Program-made: the position numbers and the translations under genes | Assembly (NCBI GenBank): GCA_030697665.1 | Contig: JAUYPJ010000022.1 | Span: forward strand, 11-64,010 | DNA from: Candidatus Omnitrophota bacterium | GTDB taxonomy: Bacteria; Omnitrophota; Gorgyraeia; Aquiviventales; Aquiviventaceae | Direction: 5' to 3' | Length of the DNA: 64,000 bases | The notes under the pieces: model-generated | Seen by the model: only the letters and a program-made list of their open reading frames with translations | Databases searched by the model: none | Told to the model about the DNA's origin: nothing | Shown: in pieces, positions 2,957-17,280 of the stretch | Numbering within the stretch: position 1 is the stretch's first letter | Layout of the letters: every line of letters begins with the position of its first letter

Positions 2957-3667
2957 TCACACAGTAGCAAGTGTCTGATCTGTTGTCAAGATACAGGGAG
3001 GGGGGGTTGAACTTTGCCTACCACCCTCGTTAGTCTTTAGAGCCAGAAAATCCTCGAACTTTTTCCGCTTTCGATGAAGACAAAGTACTGCTCGATCGTA
3101 GTACATCCACCGACAGAGTTTCAGGCTATCAGTAATTCCGTAGCGCAACGCAAACACGGTTGGAAAGGTTGCCAGGGAACCAGGAGATAGGTGAGCATGC
3201 CGCTGCAATAGCAATTGTAACTTCTCTAAAAAGATCCGACTGCCTGAGTAGAAAGAAGCTGCTAACTGCCATGTATGTCGCCATCTGGTTTCTTTCCAAA
3301 ACCAAACAGTCCCATCGCCATCAAAATCCCCTCTCACAAAATCAGGCAGAAAAGGGAGGCTGACCTCAGGAAACCGTAACGTCTTGGATTTCCGACTTGT
3401 CAGCCCTAATTCAATGAGATCGCGGTAGATCGTCTGGTTGCGAATCTGCAACCGATAACCACGAGGTTTCCTCCCAATTTTGTGAGTTGATTTCAGGACC
3501 TCTCTGATCTGATAAAGCCATTCGTAGTCCTTCGTCGTAATATCCAATTCGTGAAGACCGTTAGGATGTTCTACAAGACAACCATCTGACGCAATGACTC
3601 CAAGAACATATGCCATGTCCCTCGACCACGAGTGAAAGAAACTGGTATCAACAGTCCGTATGGTCAT
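2957..3667 (-). CDS. Free-standing LAGLIDADG-family homing endonuclease-like protein
   Basis: 236-aa ORF in clearly AT-richer DNA. It has two LAGLIDADG-type motifs (LGVIASDGCL near aa 22, VRGDFDGDGTV near aa 111), which is the single-chain two-domain layout. It starts 20 nt downstream of tRNA-Leu. Confidence 0.7.
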   Translation of the reverse strand: MTIRTVDTSFFHSWSRDMAYVLGVIASDGCLVEHPNGLHELDITTKDYEWLYQIREVLKSTHKIGRKPRGYRLQIRNQTIYRDLIELGLTSRKSKTLRFPEVSLPFLPDFVRGDFDGDGTVWFWKETRWRHTWQLAASFYSGSRIFLEKLQLLLQRHAHLSPGSLATFPTVFALRYGITDSLKLCRWMYYDRAVLCLHRKRKKFEDFLALKTNEGGRQSSTPPPCILTTDQTLATV

Positions 3668-3687: not shown

Positions 3688-3772
3688 TGGTGGGGACGAG
3701 AGGATTTGAACCTCCACCCCTTTCGGGACTACGCCCTCAACGTAGCGCGTATGCCAGTTCCGCCACGTCCCC
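3688..3772 (-). tRNA. tRNA-Leu (anticodon GAG), class II, CCA encoded
   Basis: Acceptor stem GGGGACG/CGTCCCC. 3-bp D stem with an 11-nt loop. Anticodon arm CTACG-TTGAGGG-CGTAG. 13-nt variable arm TCCCGAAAGGGGT. T arm GGAGG-TTCAAAT-CCTCT. Discriminator A followed by CCA. Confidence 0.9.
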
Positions 3773-3782
3773 ATCACACCAC

Positions 3783-5471
3783 TCAACGATCTGTACCGTC
3801 AAATCCCGTCACGGCCCCTTCGGACGCTGAGGAGACCAACGCGGCGTACTTCGCCATCACACCAGTCGTATAGCGGGGGGCGGGGATTTTCCAGCGCGCC
3901 CGACGCCGTCGCAGCTCCGCCGACGACAGCTCGACGGTGAGCCGACGCCGTTTCACATCGAACGACACCAGATCGCCGTCACGCAATAAGGCGATGGGAC
4001 CCCCGACAGCCGCCTCCGGCGCGACGTGACCGGCCATGAGGCCTCGGGTGGCCCCGGAGAAGCGCCCATCGGTCAGCAGGGCGACCGATTGACCGAGCCC
4101 CTGACCGACCAACGCCGCGGTCACCGCGAGCATCTCGCGCATCCCCGGCCCGCCCTTCGGTCCTTCGTACCGGATCACCACGACGTCCCCGGGGCGGATC
4201 TGCCGTCGCTGCACCGCGCGAAACGCCTTCTCTTCACAGTCGAAGATCCGCGCCGGACCTCGATGAGCCAACGGCTCATGCCCGGTGATCTTCACCACGC
4301 ACCCCTCACGCGCCAAGTTGCCGCGCAGTACCACGAGCCCCCCCGTCGGCCTCAAGGGATCACGCAGGGGCCGCACCACGGGCTGCCCTCGCGTCTCTGT
4401 GGCGCGCGTGGCTTCTTCGCCGATCGTGCGCCCCGTGACGGTCAACGCCCGCGGATGCAACCGGCCGGCCTCCAGCAGGCGCTTGACCACCAACCCGACC
4501 CCGCCGGCCCGATACAAATCGGTCGCCACATACCGTCCCCATGGCTTGAGATCGGCCACCAGCGGAGTCCGGCTGCTGATGCGGTCAAAGTCATCGATCA
4601 CCAGCGGCACGCCGGCTTCGCGGGCGATCGCCAACAGGTGCAACACGCTGTTGGTCGATCCGCCGGTGGCCGCCACCGCCGCAATCGCGTTCTCGATCGC
4701 CTGACGGGTCACGATGCGACGCGGGCGCAGGTCGCGGCGCAAGAGCGCCATGACCAGCTTCCCAGCGTCGCGCGCGACCGTGTCTTTGCGCGGATCCATC
4801 GCCGGCACGCTGGCCGAGCCCATCGGCGAGAGGCCCAGGACTTCGATCGCCATCGCCATGGTGTTCGCGGTAAACTGGCCCCCGCAGGCGCCGGGACCGG
4901 GACAGGCGCGATCTTCCAGCCGATGGAGGTCCTGCACGCGCATGCGGCCCGCGGCGCAGGCGCCCACGGCCTCAAACACGTCCTGAATCGTCACGTCGCG
5001 CCCGTCGAACCGGCCCGGATCGATGGAGCCGCCGTAGAGCATCAGGGAGGGCAGGTTGAGCCGCAGCAGGGCCATCACGGTGCCGGGGATGGTCTTGTCG
5101 CACCCCGAGAGCGCGACCACCCCGTCAAAGAGATGCCCGCGCACCACGAGCTCAATCGAATCGGCGATGACCTCCCGGCTGACCAGCGACGCTTTCATCC
5201 CCTCGGTGCCCATCGAGACGCCGTCGGACACCGCGATGGTGTTGAACTCGATCGGCGTGCCGCCCGCAGCCCGCACCCACGCCTTCACGCGCTCCGAGAG
5301 ACGCCGGAGGTGGAAGTTGCAGGGCATCACCTCGATCCAGGTGTTGGCAATGGCAATGAGCGGCCGCCGCAGATCTCGATCCGTCAGCCCCACCGCCTTC
5401 AACATGGCGCGGGCCGGCGCCCGATCAGGGCCGTCCAGCAGCACGCGGCTGTGACGACGCAGGTCCCTCAT
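3783..5471 (-). CDS. ilvD: Dihydroxy-acid dehydratase
   Basis: 562 aa with full-length IlvD/Edd family similarity ([29 protein letters not shown]). Confidence 0.95.
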
Positions 5472-5554: not shown

Positions 5555-5670
5555 TTTCAGATGCGAATGATGACCGATCCTCGATGGGACATGGCATGGA
5601 AGGAACGCAAAGAACAGTCTAACAAATCACTCGACGCAGTTCAAGGCACTGTCACCGGATGTCACCGGAA

Positions 5671-5958
5671 TTAGGCAGTTCGATAAGTTCGTAAATACCG
5701 CCTCACATTCTCGTGATTCCCGATCACGTGGCAAATGAACAGATCCCCCTCAGCCTTCATGACAATACGAATCTTGAGTCCTACGCGAAGCTCATACTTA
5801 TCTCCGTTGATCTTTTTAAAGACATACCCCACAGGAATGGCTCCTGCGTGTAACGCTGCGAGAAAGTCTTTCAGGGCTCCCTGGGCGTGCTCTTGATCTC
5901 TTGAGGGAAGCTTCTTGAGCTGCTTCTGAAAATGTGCGGAGACTGCGAGACGTTTCAC
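5671..5958 (-). CDS. Putative RelE/ParE-superfamily toxin
   Basis: 95-aa basic protein located 8 nt downstream of an AbrB-type antitoxin gene. Size and layout fit a type II toxin. The family assignment is tentative. Confidence 0.5.
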   Translation of the reverse strand: MKRLAVSAHFQKQLKKLPSRDQEHAQGALKDFLAALHAGAIPVGYVFKKINGDKYELRVGLKIRIVMKAEGDLFICHVIGNHENVRRYLRTYRTA

Positions 5959-5966
5959 GGAAGTCG

Positions 5967-6224
5967 CTAGCTGAGCAGACGATCAATATCCTTGGAGGTA
6001 TGCAGGCGGATCCAGCCCTTTTTCTTTTCCTCTTCATGCAGCCGATCCAGGCCAGCTAACTCCTCAGAGGCATAGCGCGGTTCAAGATCGACAGGCACCA
6101 GCAGAAGCTCGTTCCCTTTGAGTTCGGCTTTCACCATCTTCTCCCGCCCCAGATTCAATCGTCGGAGCAACTCTGCCGGCAAATGCAGATCGTTTCTGGC
6201 GTTGACACGCAACGTATAGGTCAT
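5967..6224 (-). CDS. AbrB/MazE/SpoVT-type antitoxin
   Basis: The ATG (M8 of ORF 5967..6245) gives MTYTLRVNARNDLHLPAELLRRLNLGREKMVKAELKGNELLLVP, a swapped-hairpin AbrB-like fold pattern. It is paired with the downstream toxin. Confidence 0.6.
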   Translation of the reverse strand: MTYTLRVNARNDLHLPAELLRRLNLGREKMVKAELKGNELLLVPVDLEPRYASEELAGLDRLHEEEKKKGWIRLHTSKDIDRLLS

Positions 6225-6356
6225 CACACACACCCCCTTTCTCACCAGATCAAGCCTACCATATCTTCATAGCTTTTTCAATGAAGATATGAGCGAAGTT
6301 CATCTATGAAGATATCCCAGCGACAAGCCATCGAGCAGATGTCTTCCGAATTCCCG

Positions 6357-6455: not shown

Positions 6456-6674
6456 CTATGAATGCGCCACCCACTGGATGTGTCGATGCGACTGCACACA
6501 GTCCCTCAGGTACAGATTAATCAGATTCTGATACGGCACTTCCATTTGATTCGCCATGGTCTTGAAATACTCCACAATATCCGCTCCCAGTCGAATCGTC
6601 ACTGGCTTCTTGAGCAGTCTGGCATACGGGTTTCGGCGGCCTTTCATCTTGGAAAACTCGTATTCTGTTCTCAT
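6456..6674 (-). CDS. brnA: BrnA-family antitoxin
   Basis: The internal ATG at 6674 overlaps the BrnT stop (ATGA). The product MRTEYEFSKMKGRRNPYARLLKKPVTIRLGADIVEYFK... is typical of BrnA (CopG-like). Confidence 0.75.
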   Translation of the reverse strand: MRTEYEFSKMKGRRNPYARLLKKPVTIRLGADIVEYFKTMANQMEVPYQNLINLYLRDCVQSHRHIQWVAHS

Positions 6675-6964
6675 GCGTGTTCCCTCCGATAATGTTTCGC
6701 TTCGTGGCGTGTGGCCCTTCTCGCTGAAATAATTCTGATCACCGACTGCGCCTCTCTGAGGCAATGACATACGACCAAGAGACGTAACGTGAAACTCACG
6801 CCGAGCATGATAAACCGATCCTCCCGCTCCGAGTGGTCGGGATCGAAGAACTCGAGGGCATGCTCATCGTAAAACACCGTCTGCGCCTCTTCGAACGAGA
6901 CGCCATGCTTCCTTTTATTCAGCGCGGCCTTTGCTCTGTCCCAATCGAAGCGGATATCATTCAT
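6671..6964 (-). CDS. brnT: BrnT-family (DUF497) toxin
   Basis: MNDIRFDWDRAKAALNKRKHGVSFEEAQTVFYDE...RIISARRAT matches the BrnT/DUF497 pattern. Confidence 0.85.
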   Translation of the reverse strand: MNDIRFDWDRAKAALNKRKHGVSFEEAQTVFYDEHALEFFDPDHSEREDRFIMLGVSFTLRLLVVCHCLREAQSVIRIISARRATRHEAKHYRREHA

Positions 6965-7351: not shown

Positions 7352-8311
7352 TCAGATCCGGTTATTCTTCGCCAGCCTCCAGTAATACCGTCCCGACGCC
7401 GTAAGTCGGCAGGCCTTCGATTGCATGGCGGCATCATACATGTGCGGAGCATCGACAGGCACGACCAAGTGCACGCGTTGAAGCGCTTGGAGCTTGCAAA
7501 AGATCGCTGTTTTGACAGCCTCCTTTGCCTCGCACGTGTGTTCGAACGCGGGTGTGAGCGGCAGATCCTCAGCGGGCACGGGGAATATGGTCGGCAACTC
7601 GCGCAGGATCGCAAGATCTACGACGGGTTTGCATTTTCGGAGTGGGAGGACTTTCGAGACGTGGGACTTGAATAGGGGGCGCTGGTCCCACGCGCCGAGC
7701 GCGCCCTCGACGAATGCGTAGATTGCCGGGGCGGTTACGTCGCCCAGCACGTCTGCCGCACCACCTTCGAGGGCGTCCGCAACGAGTGAAGTAAACAGCC
7801 CCGCACCGCTGGCCTCGACCGACACCTGGTCACCACGGCTAGCAGTGAGGATCGACATGCCCTCTCGGAGCATCGCTCTGGCATTATTAACTACCGGGGG
7901 ATTACCGAGATTTCCCGCATGGCAGCAATCGAGAATAATCACGACTTCCTCGGTCTTTGAGTCGTTCGCCATCTTGAGGACTTCGCTCATCGCGAGTCCT
8001 TCATCGTAGGCAGCGGCATCCTGCGTCACAAGATAGCCATCTAGATCGTTCACCGTGCCGTGCCCGGAGAAATGTAGCAGCGCGACCTCGGCGGGTTGCG
8101 CGAACAACTCCTTGACGGCTTTCCGTAATTCCGGCCGGCCGACCTTGTCACCCTTTCCGTCGAGCGTGGCCCTCATCGAACGGCAATCAAAGTCAGGCGT
8201 ACCGTCCTCGTGCTTGCGGAGCAATGATGCCATGCGGTCGGCATCATTGACGCATCCTCGCAACTCGCCGAACGGGTAAAAATCGATGCCGACGCAGAGG
8301 GCACGGCGCAT
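7352..8311 (-). CDS. Caspase-like (peptidase C14) protease with an unassigned ~100-aa C-terminal domain
   Basis: The catalytic dyad contexts are intact: LLHFSGHGTV (His) and VIILDCCHAGN (Cys). The N-terminus RALCVGIDFY...CVNDA is typical of C14. The gene lies 6 nt downstream of the TIR-like gene. Confidence 0.9.
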   Translation of the reverse strand: MRRALCVGIDFYPFGELRGCVNDADRMASLLRKHEDGTPDFDCRSMRATLDGKGDKVGRPELRKAVKELFAQPAEVALLHFSGHGTVNDLDGYLVTQDAAAYDEGLAMSEVLKMANDSKTEEVVIILDCCHAGNLGNPPVVNNARAMLREGMSILTASRGDQVSVEASGAGLFTSLVADALEGGAADVLGDVTAPAIYAFVEGALGAWDQRPLFKSHVSKVLPLRKCKPVVDLAILRELPTIFPVPAEDLPLTPAFEHTCEAKEAVKTAIFCKLQALQRVHLVVPVDAPHMYDAAMQSKACRLTASGRYYWRLAKNNRI

Positions 8312-8317
8312 GGTTGA

Positions 8318-8710
8318 TTACCTCGCCCCATCCATCAGGGCCTTCAAATTGTCCCATGTCCACTTGTAGACCTTGTCTCCGGACTTTGCCGATGAAGGCT
8401 TGGTGCAAGTCTTGTCCGGGTAAGCCGCCAAGTGGAAATACGACTTATCCTTCTCCTGAGCGATCGTGAGTTCAGCGGCTACGCCGCTCGCTTTGTCTGT
8501 GGACTCGCCGCATAGGACAACTACCACGTCGATGTTGTCCATCCGGAGGCGAACCTTGTCCTTCCAGTCGCCGGTTAGATGGTCCTTTACCGAGGCGTCC
8601 GTGAAATCGAACGGGCTGTCAGGCAGCCTGGCCTGCCCGGCGAGCATGATCTTCGTGCCTTCGTCGTGATCGTAGTCAAAGCTGATGAACACCCTTTTCT
8701 TCGTTGCCAT
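8318..8710 (-). CDS. Stand-alone TIR-like domain protein (MTH538/DUF1863-type)
   Basis: The ATG at 8710 (M20 of ORF 8318..8767) has AGGAGA 7 nt upstream. KKRVFISFDYDHDEG ... VVVLCGESTDKASGVAAELTIAQE is the TIR-like pattern and includes a candidate catalytic Glu. Confidence 0.8.
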   Translation of the reverse strand: MATKKRVFISFDYDHDEGTKIMLAGQARLPDSPFDFTDASVKDHLTGDWKDKVRLRMDNIDVVVVLCGESTDKASGVAAELTIAQEKDKSYFHLAAYPDKTCTKPSSAKSGDKVYKWTWDNLKALMDGAR

Positions 8711-8831
8711 TTGGTTTCTCCTATAGGTTCTGCGATCTGCCGCCCCGTCCAGCACCAGCTGCGGCACGCAGCACCGTCAGCTGCATGCTGTTGTTAGACG
8801 CCCCTGCTGATATGCAAGGCATGATCTCTCT

Positions 8832-9494
8832 CTACAGCCTTCCGGCTTCCAGAAAACTGAAGTATCCAGTCCTGTTGAAGATGATGTGGTCCAGCAGCTC
8901 GATGCCTACGATCTCACCAGCCGCTTTGAGCTGGGCGGTGATGTTGATGTCGCTTTGCGACGGTTCAACACCACCGCTGGGGTGATTGTGGGCGACGATG
9001 ACAGCCGAAGCGCGGTCGGAAAGCGCATCCGCGAAGACTTCGCGCGGATGAACCGGGCTCCGGTCAATCAGGCCAATCGAAACGACGCGGATGTTCAGTA
9101 TCTCGTTTGCTCCGTTGATGGTGGCGCACAGAAAGTGTTCCTGCTTCCTGTCGGCGTAGTGCCGGACGTGCGGGAGCAGATCAGACGGGGTTTCAATCTT
9201 CGCACCATCCGGCTTGATGCGGCGGCGGGCAAACTCGATCGCCGCCAGAATCAAGGTGGCCTTCGCATCGCCAACGCCTTCAAACTGCGTCAGGTCTTCG
9301 GCCTGAACTTGCAGTCCCTTCTCATCAATGGCCCGCGCCAGTTTTCCCGCCAGAGTCATCACGTCCATCCGAGGTGTGCCCTTTCCCAGCAGGATCGCGA
9401 GCAACTCCTGATCGCTTAGCGCCGGTGCGCCTTTACGGAGAAGCTTTTCTCGCGGGCGATCTTCCTCAGGAATCTGGTCAATGGGTTTGCTCAT
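8832..9494 (-). CDS. radC: RadC-family JAB/MPN domain protein
   Basis: JAMM motif AHNHPSGGVEPSQSD and an N-terminal HhH-like region. The gene starts 6 nt after the hsdR stop, so it is probably co-transcribed with the R-M operon. Confidence 0.9.
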   Translation of the reverse strand: MSKPIDQIPEEDRPREKLLRKGAPALSDQELLAILLGKGTPRMDVMTLAGKLARAIDEKGLQVQAEDLTQFEGVGDAKATLILAAIEFARRRIKPDGAKIETPSDLLPHVRHYADRKQEHFLCATINGANEILNIRVVSIGLIDRSPVHPREVFADALSDRASAVIVAHNHPSGGVEPSQSDINITAQLKAAGEIVGIELLDHIIFNRTGYFSFLEAGRL

Positions 9495-9500
9495 CGTGGA

Positions 9501-12434
9501 TCAGGCCGCTTGCAACTCGTGGAGATTCTGCTGAATCACGGTGAACGCCATGATGTCGAAGATGGCTCCTGGGTCGGTGTATTTGGGATCCGCCAATTCG
9601 TCGTAGCGGTCGCGCTCTTCGAAGGCGGTTTGAATCTTCCCGTTCACCTGGCCTTTGAAGACCTCCTCCAAATAGACGAGGTCGGCTTTGTGCGCCTCCA
9701 CCGTTTGTTTGATGTCCGCATCACTCATCTTCTCATCGGTCACTTCCCGAATGTAGAGGGCCTCGTCGTCCGTGATGTCACACTGCCGGCGGATCTGCGC
9801 GATCATCTCCTGCACAGAGACCTTCTTGGGCGGTGGACCGCTACCCTTCCTTCCCTTGCCTTTCTGGAGCTTCACCGGACCGCCGCTCCGCACTTCGCCC
9901 TGATACTGCACCGACGCCTTCACGACATCCGTCTGTCGGATTTGCTTCATCAGGTCGGAGACGCTGCCCTGCTTGATGAGCTGTGGCCCGACGTATTCGG
10001 CGAAGGCGGCGAATTCGCCAATCTCTGGCGGATAGGTAAAGAAGCAGGTCAGGAAATGATAGCTCTTCACTAACCGGGCGAGGAGGTAGGCGAAATCCTT
10101 CCGCTGGTCGAGGTCGGTGATTTTTTCCTGAAAGCGGGTGCGCAGACCGTTGACCATGAACTGGACCTGGGCGTCGGTACCGGTGGCCGCCAACTTGACG
10201 AATGCGTGGGCGTCGGCCTGGGTGAAGATACCCGCCGCCAGAATCTCCTGGTGAAGCTTCGCGCATTGCTTCTCGTCGGGATCGCCCGGCGGGAAGGGGG
10301 TGCCCTTCCGGTATTTGGCGAAGGCTTGAAGGATCGCTTGGGCGTTGTTGGTGAAGTCCACCACCACAACGTCCTGTTTGCCATCGTGACAACGGTTCAG
10401 GCGTGAAACGGTCTGCACGGCGTTGCGGTCGAAGACCGGTTTGTCGAGAAACATGCCCGCCAGCAGCGGCTGGTCGAAACCGGTCTGGAACTTGTTCGCC
10501 ACCACCATCAGCCGGTAGTCGTCGCCCTCGAACCGGTCCTCGATGACCTCGCCATCCTTCAACTCGTTCACCGCGTGTTCGCTGATGGCTGCATTCGTCT
10601 TGGGGTGAACGAAGTCAGAGAACGCATAGAGCACTTTGTAATTGGCCCCACGCTCCCGGAGCTTCTCCTTGATCACCTCGAAGAACCGTAGACCAGCCAC
10701 GCGCGAGGTGGTCACGATCATTGCCTTCGCCCGCCCGCCGACGAGCGGCTTTACGTTCTCCTCGAAGACGCGAAGCATCACCTCGGCCTTGTATTGGATC
10801 AGCCCATCGTCCTGAAACGCGACGTTCTTCAGCGCCTTCGCCACCACGCCCGCCGGATACAGCCTCTCCTCCTCCGGCTTCGGCACGATCGGGCAATGCA
10901 GGTAGTAGAGCGTCTTGTAGGAAATGATGCTGGCCGCCACGTCCACGATATAGCCTTCCTCAATCGCCTCGGCTTCCGAATACGTGTCGAATGGCTCGCC
11001 GAAGAGCGTGACGGTGGCGGGCGCCGGGGTGGCCGTGAAGGCGACGAAAAGCTGGTTGCGGTCGTGCTCGCGGATGATCTTCGCAATCTGCTCTTCGTCA
11101 TCCTGCGTGTCCTCTACCGCGTCCTCGGCATCGGGGTCATCCGCCTTGCGGAACGGCACGCGGATGGCCACGCCCATCTTGCCTTCCTGCGAGCGGTGCG
11201 CTTCATCAATCAGGAACGCCACACGCCGCGTCTTCAGTTCTGGCTCGCTTTCGATCTCTTTCAGAATCCACGCGAACTTCTGCTGGGTCGTGACGATGAT
11301 CGGCTTTCGCTCCGCGAGGAAGCGCGGCAAGTCCTCCGCTTTCCTTGCCAGCCCCACCACGTCCTTGAGGTGGACGAAGTTCTCCACCTCGTCGCGGATA
11401 TTCTTATCCAGCGATTTGCGGTCGGTGAGGATCACCACCAGGTCCACCAGCTTCTCGTTCGTGCCCGGTCGGTAGAGGCTGTGAAGCCGCTCCGCCAGCC
11501 AGCAGATCGTAAGCGTTTTCCCGCTGCCCGCGGAATGGTTGATGAGATGCTTGCCCCCAATCTCGCCAGTCGCCGCGAAGTGCCCCGCCGCCGCATCCGC
11601 CACTTTGCGCACCATGCGGCTTTGGTGGTAGCGCGGGAACAGCGTGAACGCGAGCCGCTCCGGCCGGTCATCCTCCGCCTCGCGCTTCGGCACATACACG
11701 AGAAAAAAGGCCAGCGCCTCCAGTAGCCGCTCTTTTGAGAGGACTTCCCGGTAGAGGTACTCCACCGGGTATTCGCCCGCCGTCTGCGGCACGTTGGTCA
11801 ATCCCGTGTTGTGCCAGCGGAAGTTCTGTTCACGGCGCGGGTCGGTGGCGGCCATCACATCGCTGGTGTCGGCGGTAAGGTAGAGGAATGGATGCTGAAA
11901 GATCTTCCGCGTATGATCGCGCGCCACGAACTGCGCTACGGCGTCATGGACATTCTGGTTTTTCTCGTGTTTCAGCTCCAGGGCCACGATGGGTAGGCCG
12001 TTGAGGAAGCACACGAAATCAATCTCTTGGTTGGTCTCGCCGAAGTAGAAGTGCGGGCGGAAGGTGATGCGGTTCTCGGCGTATTTCTTGGCGGCGGCGC
12101 TCTCGGCAGAGCGGGGCTTGGGGTAGTAGAGGCGGAACTCCAGCCCGCGCACCTTCAGCCCGTGGCGGAAGAGCATCCAAAGCGGCGTGTGCGCCAGTTC
12201 ATTTCGCAGGGCGCGGAACACCTCGTCCCGCGCGTCCGTTCCGTAGTCGTCCGTGAGCTGCTTGAGCGCCTCGGGCTGCGTGGCGTTGAGGAAAGCCCAG
12301 AGCTGGTCTTCAGCGATGAAATGCTCGGTGTCGATGATGTCGGTCTGTTCGAGCACGCCATACCCATGCTCGCGGACGAAGAAATCCGCAATGTGTTGCT
12401 GAAAAGTCAGCTCGGGAGCCTGTCTGCGCGGCAT
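9501..12434 (-). CDS. hsdR: Type I restriction enzyme R subunit
   Basis: The ATG at 12434 lies 2 nt after the upstream stop; the ORF track over-extends to 12641. Nuclease motif DFVCFLNGLPIVALELK. Helicase motif I HSAGSGKT. DEAH box FLIDEAH. Confidence 0.95.
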   Translation of the reverse strand: MPRRQAPELTFQQHIADFFVREHGYGVLEQTDIIDTEHFIAEDQLWAFLNATQPEALKQLTDDYGTDARDEVFRALRNELAHTPLWMLFRHGLKVRGLEFRLYYPKPRSAESAAAKKYAENRITFRPHFYFGETNQEIDFVCFLNGLPIVALELKHEKNQNVHDAVAQFVARDHTRKIFQHPFLYLTADTSDVMAATDPRREQNFRWHNTGLTNVPQTAGEYPVEYLYREVLSKERLLEALAFFLVYVPKREAEDDRPERLAFTLFPRYHQSRMVRKVADAAAGHFAATGEIGGKHLINHSAGSGKTLTICWLAERLHSLYRPGTNEKLVDLVVILTDRKSLDKNIRDEVENFVHLKDVVGLARKAEDLPRFLAERKPIIVTTQQKFAWILKEIESEPELKTRRVAFLIDEAHRSQEGKMGVAIRVPFRKADDPDAEDAVEDTQDDEEQIAKIIREHDRNQLFVAFTATPAPATVTLFGEPFDTYSEAEAIEEGYIVDVAASIISYKTLYYLHCPIVPKPEEERLYPAGVVAKALKNVAFQDDGLIQYKAEVMLRVFEENVKPLVGGRAKAMIVTTSRVAGLRFFEVIKEKLRERGANYKVLYAFSDFVHPKTNAAISEHAVNELKDGEVIEDRFEGDDYRLMVVANKFQTGFDQPLLAGMFLDKPVFDRNAVQTVSRLNRCHDGKQDVVVVDFTNNAQAILQAFAKYRKGTPFPPGDPDEKQCAKLHQEILAAGIFTQADAHAFVKLAATGTDAQVQFMVNGLRTRFQEKITDLDQRKDFAYLLARLVKSYHFLTCFFTYPPEIGEFAAFAEYVGPQLIKQGSVSDLMKQIRQTDVVKASVQYQGEVRSGGPVKLQKGKGRKGSGPPPKKVSVQEMIAQIRRQCDITDDEALYIREVTDEKMSDADIKQTVEAHKADLVYLEEVFKGQVNGKIQTAFEERDRYDELADPKYTDPGAIFDIMAFTVIQQNLHELQAA

Positions 12435-12436
12435 GG

Positions 12437-13510
12437 TCAATCCTTCCCAGCCTCCAGCCGCGCCCGGGCCAGCCACACCGCCTCGTGGAGTTTGCGTTCG
12501 AGTTCTTTCTTGGGCAGCGCATCCGCCCAATAGCTGGCCACGTGAATGCCGCTTCGAGCCAGTTCCAGCAACTCGACATGCTGCTGGGTTTTGCCGGCGC
12601 AGAGAATGAGGCCCAGCGGCGATGCCTCTTCCGTCTCGCACTCGTACCGCTTGAGCCAGTTCAGGTAAAGCTCCATCTGCCCCTTGTCCCCGGCCGCGAA
12701 GTCGCCGATCTTGAGGTCAATTGCCACCAACCGGCGCAATTTGCGGTGGTAGAAAAGCAAATCCAGATAGTAATCCTTGTCGTCGATCTGAATCCGTTTT
12801 TGCCGGGCCACAAAACAGAACCCGACACCCAGTTCGAGGATAAACGCCTCCATTTCCCGCAGGATGGCCGCCTCCATATCCTTCTCGGCATAGGTGTCCT
12901 TGAGTCCCAGGAAATCGAGGATGTAGGGATCGCGGAAAACCAGGTCGGGCGTGAGTTTGTCCTCCTCGCGCAGATGCTTGAGTTCCATCGCGGCGAGCTT
13001 CTCTGGTTTCCGTGACAGCGCGGTGCGCTCGAACAGCATCGAGCCAATCTTCTTTTCCAGCGTGCGCGTGCTCCAGCGCTCGATGCGGCACATCTCGGCG
13101 TAGAAATCGCGCTTGAGCGGGTCGTCCAGGGCGATGATCTGCCGAAAATGTGTCCAGCCCAATTGTGTCCGCAGTGCGGACACAATCTTGGGGTCGGGAA
13201 AGACCTCGGCGAATCGAACCATGCGGAAAAGGTTCCGCCTCCCGAACCCCCGCCCGAACTCCTGCTCCAATTGTGCACTCAGTGCAGACACAATCTGTTC
13301 GCCATACTCCGCCCGCTTCTCCCGCAGGATGTCTGTGCGGATACGACTCCCGATCTGCCAGTAAAGCAGCGTCAAACCCGCGTTGACCGCCCGGGCTACG
13401 CCTTCGCGGGCTTGCACGATCAGCTCCCGCACGTCAGCCAGCAACACGGTGGGCCCTTGGGCGGGCAAGACGGCGACGCCAGTTCGCTTGGTTGATTTTC
13501 GTTTCGTCAT
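12437..13510 (-). CDS. DUF1016/YhcG-family PDDEXK nuclease-like protein embedded in the R-M operon
   Basis: The ATG at 13510 overlaps the hsdS stop (ATGA). C-terminal YYLDLLFYHRKLRRLVAIDLKIGDF is the PD-(D/E)xK core typical of DUF1016. Confidence 0.85.
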   Translation of the reverse strand: MTKRKSTKRTGVAVLPAQGPTVLLADVRELIVQAREGVARAVNAGLTLLYWQIGSRIRTDILREKRAEYGEQIVSALSAQLEQEFGRGFGRRNLFRMVRFAEVFPDPKIVSALRTQLGWTHFRQIIALDDPLKRDFYAEMCRIERWSTRTLEKKIGSMLFERTALSRKPEKLAAMELKHLREEDKLTPDLVFRDPYILDFLGLKDTYAEKDMEAAILREMEAFILELGVGFCFVARQKRIQIDDKDYYLDLLFYHRKLRRLVAIDLKIGDFAAGDKGQMELYLNWLKRYECETEEASPLGLILCAGKTQQHVELLELARSGIHVASYWADALPKKELERKLHEAVWLARARLEAGKD

Positions 13511-14190
13511 GGCCGCCGCAAATCCTCTTCCGTCACCCGCCGCTGGCCGGTGACGCATTCGAAGATCAGAGCCTTCCGATACGCAATCAGGGTCTCCATC
13601 TGCTGATTCAGGACTCCCTTCCCGCGTGGGACTTTGTCGTCCGCTTTCTGAAGCGAGGCTACTGCGTCAACCTGCGCGCAGATCCCGTCCAAGTAGGTCG
13701 CGATCCGCTCCTGCTCGGGCCGGTGCGGAACCGGGAAGATAAGTGCGCCGAAATCCTTATCTGCGACGGCAGGGTAGCCAACACCGGTTGCGACAGCTTC
13801 AAAGTACTGTCGTGCATAGTCGGAAATGAGAACATAGTACGCATAGCGAGGTACGAGCCGATGCTCGTCTGGCTGAACTACGTTGAATCCCGTGGAGCAA
13901 ATCAGGCCGCTCGTGTCGTCCGGGAAGAAAGCCACTGCCTGGAGATTTGGTCGCACGGACGAGATGATCGTGCTGTTCTGCGCGACAATGCGGCGAGCCC
14001 TGGAGGGAGCGTCCTCGAACCGGAGCCCTTCGATCGCATTGCGATCGACGATTCCAAAATAGTCTACATTTGAGATTTCCAAGTAGGGAAACTCGAAATC
14101 GGGATCAGTGCCCGCAGGTAGAGATGCGCCGTTGACGATGCACAGGTCCTTGAGGCGGTCTCTCATCCAATCGTGGGGCAGGTTGATCAT
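13507..14190 (-). CDS. hsdS: Type I R-M specificity subunit, half-size (single target-recognition domain)
   Basis: 227 aa with one TRD plus the conserved helices (PHRPEQERIATYLD ... LIAYRKALIFECVTGQ). The start overlaps the hsdM stop (ATGA). Confidence 0.85.
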   Translation of the reverse strand: MINLPHDWMRDRLKDLCIVNGASLPAGTDPDFEFPYLEISNVDYFGIVDRNAIEGLRFEDAPSRARRIVAQNSTIISSVRPNLQAVAFFPDDTSGLICSTGFNVVQPDEHRLVPRYAYYVLISDYARQYFEAVATGVGYPAVADKDFGALIFPVPHRPEQERIATYLDGICAQVDAVASLQKADDKVPRGKGVLNQQMETLIAYRKALIFECVTGQRRVTEEDLRRP

Positions 14191-16277
14191 GGCGCGACTG
14201 TTTCTTTGTCCAACCGATCAACCATGCTCTCTGCGAGCTTCTCCAACTTCCAGAACTCGGCGAGCAGATCTTTCGCCGGCGCCAGCGGCTGGTAGCGGTA
14301 GAAGTATTTGTTCGGGAGGATTTCGTAGCCGAGTTGCGGGCTCTCTTCCCAGCGGATGATGGGCTTGGCGATTTCCCGTTTCAGGAACGCCGCGATGTCC
14401 TCGCCGTGCGGGATATATTCATCGTCCTGCACGTAGTGCCGGTGCGTCCATTTGACGGAGAGGATCTCGGGCCGACCTGCCTGTGCCGTGCCCGGCACGG
14501 CAGACAGGTCCCCCAGAGCCGCTTTGAGCTTCTTCGCGGCGCTGTCGGCCGGTTTGAGGACAAACTCCACGGTCTTTTCGGCCCCGGCGGCCTTCACGAT
14601 CACGCGGAAGGTCAAGTCACTGTCATGGAACAACTGCTCCTTGGCGAGGCTGACGACGGTGAAGGTCTTCGCGTAAGGCTCGGTGATGATGGCGGGCTGG
14701 TCGTGCTCGTCTGTCTGCCAGAAGACCACCCTGACCTTGTGATAGGCGAAGTCCTCTTTGTGGAAGAGCTTCACGTGCTCGTCGTCAAAGCCGGGTTTCC
14801 AGCCCTTGTGGTAGCGCTCCTCGATCCATTGCCGGTGAGCGTCCGTCATCCGGTTGCGTTTATTGCCGAACGACTTCGGCTCTTTCTCGAACTGCCGGCG
14901 GGCGTCAATGAGCATCACGCGCCCGCGATGGCCGGCGGGCTTGTCGTTTCGCAGCAGCCAGATGTAGGTGAAGATGCCGGTGTTGTAGAAAAGTTGGTCG
15001 GGTAGCATGACGATGGCGTCGAGCCAGTCATTCTCCAGAATCCAGCGGCGGATTTCGCTCTCCCCTTGGCCACAGTCCCCATTGGAGAGTGGCGAGCCGT
15101 TGAAGATGATGGCAATGCGACTGCTCCCCCGTTCAGGTGGTTTCATCTTGGCGAGCATGGTTTGCAGGAAGAGCAGCGCGCCATCGTTCGTACGCGGCAT
15201 CCCGGCCTGGTAGCGGGTTTTCTCCAGCTTGCGCGCCTCGGTCTCGTAGCCATCCTTGCCGCCCCAGGTGACGCCGAAGGGTGGATTACTGAGCATGAAG
15301 TCGAAGCGGTCATGCGGGCCGGCAAGCTGGTCGCCCGGCTCTTTGCTGTGCGCCTCGTGGGGGATGAGCGAGTTGCCGAGGTACACCTTGGCTTGCTGGT
15401 CGTTCTTGATGAGCAGGTCGGCCTGACAGATCGCGTAGTTCGTGGGCGAAAGCTCCTGCCCGTGGACGGTGACGAACTTCTCGACGTTGTCTCTCTGTGC
15501 GGGCGTGTCGGCGCGGTCGAGCAGATGTTCCTTAGCTACGGATAACATGCCGCCCGTGCCGCAGGCGGGGTCGTAGATGGAGACGTGCCGGCGGGGGATG
15601 GGAATCTCGAGCAGCTCGACCATGAGCCGGATCACCTCACGTGGAGTAAAGTGCTCTCCGGCCTCCTCGCCGCTTTGTTCTGAGAAGCGCCGGAGCAGTT
15701 CTTCGTAGATGTAGCCCATCTCCAGACCGGAGAGCTGGTCCGGGCCAAGGTCCAGTTCCTTGTATTGATTCAGGATCGGCTCGAGCCGGTTGTTCTTCAC
15801 CATCGTGCCGATGGTGGCGCGGTAGTTGAAGTGCTCGATAATGTCGTCAACGTTCTTGGAGAAACCATTGATATAGGCACGGAAGTGCTCCTCTAGGAGC
15901 GTGTGGTCTTCCTCATAGACCTTGCGGAGCGTCCATTTGGTCTTGTTCGAGAACGGCGACTGCTGGGGATTCAGTTCGAGTTCCTTGACCAGCTTGGCGA
16001 GTTCCTTCTCGGTGAGCTTGGGCCGCTTGGCCAGCACCTTGGCGCCCTTCGCCGCGCGCCAGGTGAGCAACACACACTCCAGCCGCCGGATGACGATGAT
16101 GGGCAGGATGACACCTTGGTATTCGTAAGCCTTGAACTTGCCGCGTAGCCGCTCGGCAGATTTCCAAATCTCGGTGGCGAGGTTGTCGAGCTTTGGCTTG
16201 TTGAGCAGGAGAGGTGTGGGAGAAGAAGAGCCGTCTTTGATGGTGGTCCTCATCTTGAGTTCTTCAAGCTTGTTCAT
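14187..16277 (-). CDS. hsdM: Type I R-M DNA methyltransferase subunit (N6-adenine)
   Basis: The ATG at 16277 (M78 of the ORF) has GGGAG upstream. Motif I YDPACGTGGML, motif IV LSNPPFG, and an HsdM_N-like N-terminus. Confidence 0.95.
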   Translation of the reverse strand: MNKLEELKMRTTIKDGSSSPTPLLLNKPKLDNLATEIWKSAERLRGKFKAYEYQGVILPIIVIRRLECVLLTWRAAKGAKVLAKRPKLTEKELAKLVKELELNPQQSPFSNKTKWTLRKVYEEDHTLLEEHFRAYINGFSKNVDDIIEHFNYRATIGTMVKNNRLEPILNQYKELDLGPDQLSGLEMGYIYEELLRRFSEQSGEEAGEHFTPREVIRLMVELLEIPIPRRHVSIYDPACGTGGMLSVAKEHLLDRADTPAQRDNVEKFVTVHGQELSPTNYAICQADLLIKNDQQAKVYLGNSLIPHEAHSKEPGDQLAGPHDRFDFMLSNPPFGVTWGGKDGYETEARKLEKTRYQAGMPRTNDGALLFLQTMLAKMKPPERGSSRIAIIFNGSPLSNGDCGQGESEIRRWILENDWLDAIVMLPDQLFYNTGIFTYIWLLRNDKPAGHRGRVMLIDARRQFEKEPKSFGNKRNRMTDAHRQWIEERYHKGWKPGFDDEHVKLFHKEDFAYHKVRVVFWQTDEHDQPAIITEPYAKTFTVVSLAKEQLFHDSDLTFRVIVKAAGAEKTVEFVLKPADSAAKKLKAALGDLSAVPGTAQAGRPEILSVKWTHRHYVQDDEYIPHGEDIAAFLKREIAKPIIRWEESPQLGYEILPNKYFYRYQPLAPAKDLLAEFWKLEKLAESMVDRLDKETVAP

Positions 16278-16632
16278 ACCGCATGGACTCCCGATGAGAT
16301 CCGAATCGCTTCCTCGTTTGAGAGACAACCCACCGCTCAAACTGATCCTTTCGAAACCGCCCCGCCACAGAGCCTGGCGGGCAGGCAGGAGCCACCAACT
16401 TTTCCGCCGAGGATCATCCCGGATTCCTGCCGGCCGTTCTGGGATGGGTTCGCGAGCGCGTCCGAGGTGGAAACAGGGCCTTCCCGTTCTGCTCGGCAAG
16501 GGTCGCAAGGGGCATCACGGACGCCCATGCAGATAGGGCATACCGAGCCGTACCATGAAAAAGGAACATATGATGTTCAATTTTCATGAAACTTTGCACC
16601 GAAGTCCAGTAGGCTCGCACTCTACTGGGTCG

Positions 16633-17280
16633 TCAAAAACACACGGCTGACGTCGCCTCAGGAGGCTTGAGGAGCGCTTGGATTCGGCTTAGGCGTTCGC
16701 TGAAGACGGCGTCATCCAGCACCGGGACGGCACCCGCGAGGGAGACGGCCTGCTCCAACTCAACCCATGATTTACATCCGGCGTAGCGGTTTGACAGGGG
16801 CAGCGACACGGGAGCGGGCAAGCGCAGCACGCGGATCACCCCGATGACCAGCGGCTGATCCGGCTGCCAGCGAAGGCGCTGGCTCATAAACGCGTCGTTG
16901 TAGATGTGAAACGGCTCCAGCCGCTTGAGGAGATCCGCATCGCGGCTCTGCGTCGCGTAGACCATCTCACCGCAGAGCTCAAACGTGACGTGTCCGTCAG
17001 CCGGTTTACCTGCCTGCGCCGCGCCCGGCGCGGCAGGCAGGTGACCCATCGCCTCCTCGAACAACGCCTGAAACGGGCTGCGCAGGAAGGTGACGGTCTG
17101 GTGCTCGTAGGTGGGATATAAGAGGAAGTGCGGCGCGCGAAACTCAAAGCCGCTGCCCGGCTCGATCAACCCCCCCTTGCGGATGAAGACGAGCTGCTCC
17201 CCCCGCGCGCACGCCGCCAGCACGCTCGCCCACTCTTTCAGCGCGACCTGGCAGGTGGCCGGCAGGACGGGGCGGCTCAT
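16633..17280 (-). CDS. DUF1802 family protein
   Basis: ALKEWASVLAACARGEQLVFIRKGGLIEPG...YPTYEHQ matches the DUF1802 pattern. The start overlaps the upstream MBL gene stop. Confidence 0.7.
   Translation of the reverse strand: MSRPVLPATCQVALKEWASVLAACARGEQLVFIRKGGLIEPGSGFEFRAPHFLLYPTYEHQTVTFLRSPFQALFEEAMGHLPAAPGAAQAGKPADGHVTFELCGEMVYATQSRDADLLKRLEPFHIYNDAFMSQRLRWQPDQPLVIGVIRVLRLPAPVSLPLSNRYAGCKSWVELEQAVSLAGAVPVLDDAVFSERLSRIQALLKPPEATSAVCF

Follow-up and report, generated by a model that had tools for sequence, protein, structure and literature searches.

Type IV Thoeris is an anti-phage system that is composed of a TIR protein plus a caspase-like protease (Rousset et al., bioRxiv 10.1101/2024.10.24.620036; Science 387:510, 2025). 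Two such systems have been verified, from Pseudomonas sp. 1-7 and from E. coli 328 (bioRxiv 10.1101/2024.10.24.620036), and the effector was given the name ThsE at a later date. During infection the TIR protein produces the cyclic ADP-ribose (cADPR) isomer N7-cADPR, which switches on the protease, and the activated protease of the Pseudomonas (Ps) and E. coli (Ec) systems cuts many proteins after arginine. A <3 kDa filtrate of infected, TIR-expressing cells suffices to activate the protease in vitro, and PsCaspase is activated by metabolites of cells that express EcTIR. The substitutions E79Q in PsTIR and C129A in PsCaspase each abolish defence (bioRxiv 10.1101/2024.10.24.620036). In the E. 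coli model, activation of the TIR depends on the T6 capsid vertex protein, which alone does not suffice, and T4-like phages counter the system via the sponge TadIV-1. Here we analyse a TIR-caspase gene pair in a stretch of 64,000 nucleotides from a Candidatus Omnitrophota bacterium (GenBank assembly GCA_030697665.1, contig JAUYPJ010000022.1, positions 11 to 64,010; the window, numbered from its first letter). Comparison of the two proteins with the verified systems makes it very probable that the two genes form an intact type IV Thoeris locus (thsB/thsE) that would act by the published mechanism.

A TIR-caspase gene pair matches type IV Thoeris

An earlier note on this DNA, which a model had made from the sequence alone, described an operon of a 130-residue TIR-like protein and a 319-residue caspase-fold protease separated by 6 nt. 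Both open reading frames (ORFs) are present, on the minus strand, with the following features:

8717-8722, minus strand: Shine-Dalgarno sequence AGGAGA, read from the sequence, 6 nt upstream of the thsB ATG at 8710
8318-8710, minus strand: thsB, 130-residue stand-alone ThsB-type TIR protein (PF08937; full-length match to PsTIR)
7352-8311, minus strand: thsE, 319-residue caspase-like protease, stop codon at 7352-7354 included (PF00656; match to PsCaspase and EcCaspase)
7727-8311, minus strand: caspase (C14) protease domain of ThsE, residues 1-195 (His84 and Cys130 conserved; Foldseek)
7355-7726, minus strand: C-terminal domain of ThsE, residues 196-319 (aligned with EcCaspase and PsCaspase)

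The thsB stop codon, the 6-nt gap and the thsE start codon read TAA-TCAACC-ATG, and a GAGG sequence at 8321-8324, within the 3' end of thsB, lies ahead of thsE. The ORF lister also gave a longer TIR frame of 149 residues from a GTG at 8767; close TIR homologues are nearly all 129-130 residues long, and we prefer the 130-residue start at the ATG at 8710 because of these lengths and the position of the AGGAGA. Pfam profiles place both proteins above their curated cut-offs, the TIR protein with ThsB_TIR (PF08937, E=1.1e-7, 32.6 bits against a cut-off of 21.2) and residues 2-186 of the caspase with Peptidase_C14 (PF00656, E=1.6e-16, 61.2 bits against 21.4), while NCBIfam named neither of them above cut-off. 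Catalytic candidates were located at Glu80 of the TIR (in GVAAELT) and at His84 (in SGHG) and Cys129/Cys130 (in DCCHAG) of the caspase.

The verified proteins used for comparison were PsTIR, translated from Table S2 of the describing paper and found as P0241 of Pseudomonas sp. 1-7; PsCaspase (328 residues), encoded adjacent to PsTIR on contig JPRQ01000026 of assembly GCA_000742775.1, which is named in the paper; and EcCaspase of E. coli strain 165, a strain with TIR DNA that matches the cloned EcTIR fragment at 100% identity. Residues 1-127 of the window TIR align end to end with PsTIR at 35% identity (E=1e-22). The window caspase aligns over residues 1-319 with residues 1-328 of PsCaspase at 42% identity (E=2e-89) and with residues 1-321 of EcCaspase at 40% identity (E=8e-80), and both alignments extend through the C-terminal region, where the motifs ALGAWDQRP, HMYxAA and CRLTAxGxYY are common to the window caspase and EcCaspase.

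The catalytic positions agree as well. Glu80, the catalytic candidate already picked out in the earlier note, aligns with the catalytic E79 of PsTIR. Cys130 aligns with Cys129 of PsCaspase (ILDSCHSG) and also with the cysteine of the metacaspase DSCHSG motif; since the two alignments agree, we take Cys130 as the nucleophile. The describing paper detects type IV Thoeris as a PF08937 or PF13676 TIR at most one gene away from a caspase-like gene (bioRxiv 10.1101/2024.10.24.620036), and the window pair has a PF08937 match above cut-off in the gene adjacent to the caspase gene on the same strand. All defining features of type IV Thoeris that can be tested on the sequence were found in the pair.

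The earlier note had mentioned type IV Thoeris by name, and the full-length alignments to the verified proteins bear out that this is the right family. It had also suggested that the short TIR type and the unassigned C-terminal domain might mark a distinct variant outside the described families. This suggestion finds no support, as PsTIR itself matches PF08937 and is thus of the same short kind as the window TIR, and the residues of the C-terminal domain can be aligned one by one with those of PsCaspase and EcCaspase.

The gene pair is conserved across many phyla

Relatives of the caspase and of the TIR number in the thousands each and hardly vary in length (~319 and ~130 residues, respectively). 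When one genome per species was scanned, 305 confirmed caspase relatives were obtained, and 80 loci from many phyla were kept, with caspases of 45-85% identity. In 66 of the 80 loci a ThsB-type TIR gene, identified with a TIR-family profile, lies directly upstream of the caspase gene on the same strand; the two genes are separated by -4 to +38 nt, and a second TIR follows just downstream in three of the 66. The remaining loci mostly have the TIR downstream, a TIR remnant, or a contig edge. The pairing of TIR and caspase is therefore far beyond chance. One scan locus (L077), from Mucilaginibacter sp. PPCGB 2223, belongs to a genome that is also listed in Table S1 of the describing paper. None of the other window neighbours, RadC and the toxin-antitoxin (TA) genes included, recurs with the pair in the 80 loci, and restriction-modification (R-M) genes occur only sporadically. 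RadC or another neighbour as a component of the system was therefore rejected, and the two genes alone make up the module.

His84 and Cys130, the dyad that the earlier note had recognised as intact, are 100% conserved among 79 diverse caspase homologues, in which Cys129 is conserved at 96% and Asp23 and Asp128 at 97% or more. Glu80 is invariant in 85 TIRs, among them EcTIR, where it corresponds to E84. The closest relatives of the window pair are found in metagenome-assembled genomes of Phycisphaerae, Acidobacteriota, Verrucomicrobiota, Nitrospiraceae and Competibacteraceae, and more than 100 clusters at 90% identity share at least 67% identity with the window caspase; they come from Phycisphaerae, Acidobacteriota, Verrucomicrobiota and others.

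Several loci depart from the two-gene arrangement. A three-gene operon variant occurs in L031, L034, L041 and L042, where the caspase is followed by a protein of ~160-170 residues and then by a TIR of 126-127 residues. The middle protein, encoded ~0-500 nt downstream of the caspase gene, is weakly SLOG-like (YpsA, E=0.019; YAcAr, E=8e-4), and L035 has a caspase with a SLOG-like gene (4888-5427) and no TIR that we could find. Two further ThsE-family caspases, in L029 and L037, lack a nearby ThsB-type TIR and have, after the caspase, a gene for an 8xMP octameric membrane protein (PF24838; L029:1462-1917, E=1.7e-41; L037:4991-5587, E=5.5e-17), after which L037 encodes a nucleoside 2-deoxyribosyltransferase-like protein (5590-6006, E=8.6e-7); these loci may represent another partner set for the ThsE effector. 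The closest named relatives, four Phycisphaerae loci (L004-L007), carry an additional TIR-family ORF of 132-148 residues (E ~1e-29 to 1e-35). It is encoded on the other strand, upstream of the thsB-thsE pair and ~900 nt from the caspase; the window lacks it and has RadC in its place. In a Phycisphaeraceae locus (L003), whose caspase is 82% identical to that of the window, the TIR is reduced to its C-terminal 57 residues (3822-3992), and this copy looks decayed. The operon of E. coli strain 165 (L001:4001-5378) lies within a prophage, with the lysis cassette (holin, endolysin, Rz) on one side and antiterminator Q on the other, which is a typical 'moron' position.

The C-terminal domain of ThsE is a conserved part of the effector

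The ~125 residues that follow the protease domain (about 196-319) have no Pfam match, in line with the earlier note, which saw no familiar motif there and treated the domain as an orphan. The alignments with PsCaspase and EcCaspase identify it as the ThsE C-terminal domain. Across the 79 caspases it contains three conserved motifs, G206-x-W208-x-Q210-R211-P212..K215, M291-Y292-x-A294-A295 and C301-x-L303-T304..G307..Y310, and its level of conservation is close to that of the protease domain (mean top-residue frequency 0.65 and 0.67, respectively). An exhaustive search with the C-terminal 125 residues returned 643 clusters at 50% identity, in which the domain almost always occupies the end of a caspase of ~315-330 residues, from position ~195 onward. 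As the domain almost always follows a caspase, a modular sensor that is reused with other effectors was rejected.

Departures from the plain caspase architecture comprise fragments, one tandem-caspase protein, one fusion of TIR, TPR and caspase, and a likely gene-call artefact. The fusion, P0472 (836 residues), has TIR_2, TPR repeats, a caspase and the ThsE C-terminal domain in one chain, and this natural fusion provides an independent link between TIR and effector. The tandem-caspase protein, P0375 (1017 residues), has two caspase domains before the ThsE C-terminal domain.

Residues 196-319 are the predicted N7-cADPR sensor and dimerisation domain. The modest value of the locus lies in its well-conserved environmental ortholog set, which pinpoints W208, Q210, R211, P212, K215, R225, M291, Y292, C301, T304 and Y310 as invariant, and these residues are candidates for mutagenesis or for the interpretation of a ligand-bound structure.

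Predicted structures of ThsB and ThsE

The AlphaFold2 model of the caspase has a mean predicted local distance difference test score (pLDDT) of 84.9 and a predicted template modelling score (pTM) of 0.83. In a Foldseek comparison with the PDB it matched only MALT1 paracaspase and metacaspases, via the protease domain, with E values down to 2.7e-9. The TIR model is weaker (pLDDT 71.6), and its best matches are bacterial Thoeris-type TIRs, the B. cereus TIR 8fz9 (E=5.5e-5) and EcThsB 8wcf. A sequence search of the PDB gave metacaspases and MALT1 only for the caspase and no match for the TIR, and no type IV ThsB structure was found.

Two loops of the caspase model are poorly predicted, residues 133-145, just after the catalytic cysteine, and residues 208-217. 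Both are candidate moving regions that may become ordered on ligand binding or dimerisation. By analogy with the metacaspase literature, Asp23 and Asp128 would line the predicted S1 pocket as its acidic residues, which would suit a basic residue at P1.

Genomic surroundings

The pair lies among the following genes of the window:

2957-3667, minus strand: 236-residue ORF, LAGLIDADG_3 homing-endonuclease-like (E=7.4e-8), directly after the tRNA-Leu gene
3688-3772, minus strand: tRNA-Leu(GAG)
5671-6245, minus strand: second small 'TA' pair, with sub-threshold matches (ParE-like, E=0.026; MazE-like, E=0.18)
6456-6964, downstream of thsE: BrnT/BrnA TA pair, a solid assignment
8832-9494, minus strand: RadC/JAB protein, directly upstream of thsB, between the pair and the R-M genes
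9501-12641: HsdR of the type I R-M set
12437-13558, minus strand: DUF1016/YhcG PD-(D/E)xK nuclease, between hsdR and hsdS (PADLOC PDC-S02, E=1.8e-127)
13507-14190, minus strand: HsdS, 227 residues, about half the usual length
14187-16508: HsdM of the type I R-M set
16633-17280, minus strand: DUF1802 protein (E=3.6e-45), bordering the R-M genes on the far side

The region of ~5.6-16.5 kb is a defence island that holds BrnTA, RadC, type IV Thoeris and a type I R-M operon with an inserted DUF1016/YhcG nuclease, around which the ORFs overlap as called. The earlier note had placed the pair between two TA modules and a type I R-M operon. BrnT/BrnA and the R-M genes uphold this context; the second TA module is plausible from gene size and arrangement, its profile matches being below threshold, and the pair does not directly adjoin the R-M operon, as RadC lies in between. 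RadC stands beside the pair in the window and on an independent 4.6-kb metagenome contig (L084; RadC at 1-480), the one other contig found with an identical caspase, which has the same RadC-TIR-caspase order; in the 80 genome loci it is never found there. The free-standing site of the LAGLIDADG_3 ORF beside a tRNA gene is unusual.

Proposed mechanism and alternative explanations

What the sequences themselves show for the pair is homology to the verified proteins, the domain architecture, catalytic residues that are conserved and a conserved adjacency of the two genes. From homology to the verified proteins we infer the identity of the signal, the specificity for arginine, the role of the C-terminal domain and a function of the window pair in defence. 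Phage infection would activate the small TIR, a step that involves the T6 capsid vertex protein in the E. coli model, and the TIR, via Glu80, would turn nicotinamide adenine dinucleotide (NAD+) into N7-cADPR. ThsE would sense this molecule, probably by its C-terminal domain in a dimer, and its His84/Cys130 protease would then cut after arginine in many cell proteins, including EF-Tu, so that the infected cell would stop growing or die ahead of the release of phage progeny. The earlier note had proposed the same division of labour, with the TIR as sensor and signal maker and the caspase as an effector activated through its C-terminal domain, and it coincides with the published type IV Thoeris model, of whose verified proteins both window proteins are full-length homologues.

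Several observations weigh against this reading. The window proteins resemble the verified ones only moderately (35-42% identity), so that a different cADPR isomer or cleavage preference may be used, and EcTIR aligns with the window TIR only partially, at 27% identity. The ligand-binding role of the ThsE C-terminal domain is itself a published hypothesis (bioRxiv 10.1101/2024.10.24.620036). Neither a sequence search nor Foldseek found a ThsE structure in the PDB, and in our model the loop that bears the most conserved C-terminal motif (W208-D-Q-R-P..K215) is of low confidence. A consensus scan found no sigma-70-like promoter upstream of thsB, although this consensus may not be that of the host. 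Finally, PADLOC-DB v2.0.0 gave weak ThsB matches (E=4e-5) and a match to a generic 'caspase' model for the pair; this release, from 2023, predates type IV Thoeris and lacks a model for it, and its weak matches therefore say nothing against membership.

The best-surviving alternative retains the architecture and changes the chemistry, so that the TIR product is not N7-cADPR or the protease has a specificity other than promiscuous cleavage after arginine. It draws on the TIR identities given above, on the different products that related TIRs of other Thoeris types yield, and on one TIR cluster whose members pair with type I, type IV and DUF2270 effectors. Yet, to judge by their identities to the window TIR (27% and 35%), EcTIR and PsTIR appear to differ from each other about as much as each does from it, and metabolites of EcTIR-expressing cells activate PsCaspase all the same. 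The signal thus appears to be kept across distant members, and N7-cADPR is probably used throughout the family. The near-equal conservation of the presumed sensor and protease domains, the signature motifs of the C-terminal domain that are common with EcCaspase, and the conserved acidic S1-type residues Asp23 and Asp128 also argue for the published chemistry, and we consider a change of chemistry unlikely. There is a similarly small chance that the environmental subclade of 319-residue ThsE and 130-residue ThsB proteins makes another TIR product or senses its signal in an undescribed way via the W208-x-Q-R-P..K215 loop; if so, the subclade would be a functional sub-type of type IV Thoeris.

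Much less probable still is a reversal of roles or an absence of signalling, with the TIR as an NAD+-depleting effector or the two proteins as a TA-like or housekeeping pair, and with the caspase as a regulator or an unrelated metacaspase-like protease. Some bacterial TIRs are indeed NADase effectors and not signal makers, and the locus lies among TA modules. However, the TA genes next to the pair do not recur with it at any other locus, the TIR consists of a minimal 130-residue domain that carries no sensor or effector fusion, and its adjacency to a caspase with the C-terminal-domain architecture holds over many phyla; moreover, for full-length homologues it is the <3 kDa filtrate of infected, TIR-expressing cells that activates the protease in vitro. 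A decayed or silent copy, intact in appearance and unexpressed or functionally dead, would fit the lack of a promoter-like site upstream of thsB and the loss of most of the TIR gene in at least one close relative (L003), but it is hardly credible given two full-length ORFs with Shine-Dalgarno sequences, the presence of all catalytic and family-invariant residues, and the identical caspase in the same gene order on the independent metagenome contig.

Comparison with known systems

In SAVED-CHAT of type III CRISPR and in the EACC1-associated caspases, as proposed here, a caspase-fold protease is switched on as an immune effector. The window protease belongs to neither group, and no CRISPR, SAVED or EACC1 partner is encoded nearby. 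It scores 81.4 bits against a cut-off of 140 with the profile of the EACC1-associated caspases (NCBIfam NF047832), in the protease core only, and 17.8 bits against a cut-off of 24 with that of the CHAT proteases (PF12770). With metacaspases and MALT1 (C14), ThsE has in common the caspase-hemoglobinase fold, the His/Cys dyad and the conserved GCxND and D-x-C-H-x-G motifs, which are consistent with cleavage after basic residues. Sequence similarity to these proteins is found in the protease core only (E ~1e-5), and their activity is controlled through Ca2+, dimerisation or scaffold proteins; the ThsE C-terminal domain is missing from them.

In type I Thoeris, too, a stand-alone ThsB-type TIR makes an NAD+-derived cADPR by which a neighbouring abortive-infection effector is activated, and the window TIR model matches ThsB structures of Thoeris. 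The effectors differ: that of type I is the NADase ThsA, with a SLOG sensor that responds to 3'cADPR, whereas that of the window is a protease with no SIR2 or SLOG domain. Types I, II and III Thoeris were excluded, as the window TIR has a C14 caspase as its only partner and the genes on either side encode no SIR2-SLOG, Macro-TM or SLOG domains.

The Ps and Ec systems of type IV Thoeris agree with the window pair in the order of TIR and then caspase, the tight junction and the defence-island setting. They have the same short PF08937-type TIR with the glutamate in the same position, and the same caspase of ~320 residues with a His/Cys dyad and a C-terminal domain, at 35-42% full-length identity. 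The window caspase differs from PsCaspase in having DCCHAG in place of DSCHSG around the nucleophile. The locus is thus a further ortholog of a known system, different from those of Pseudomonas and E. coli and from an uncultured environmental bacterium, and not a new kind of system; its main use is annotation as thsB/thsE of type IV Thoeris.

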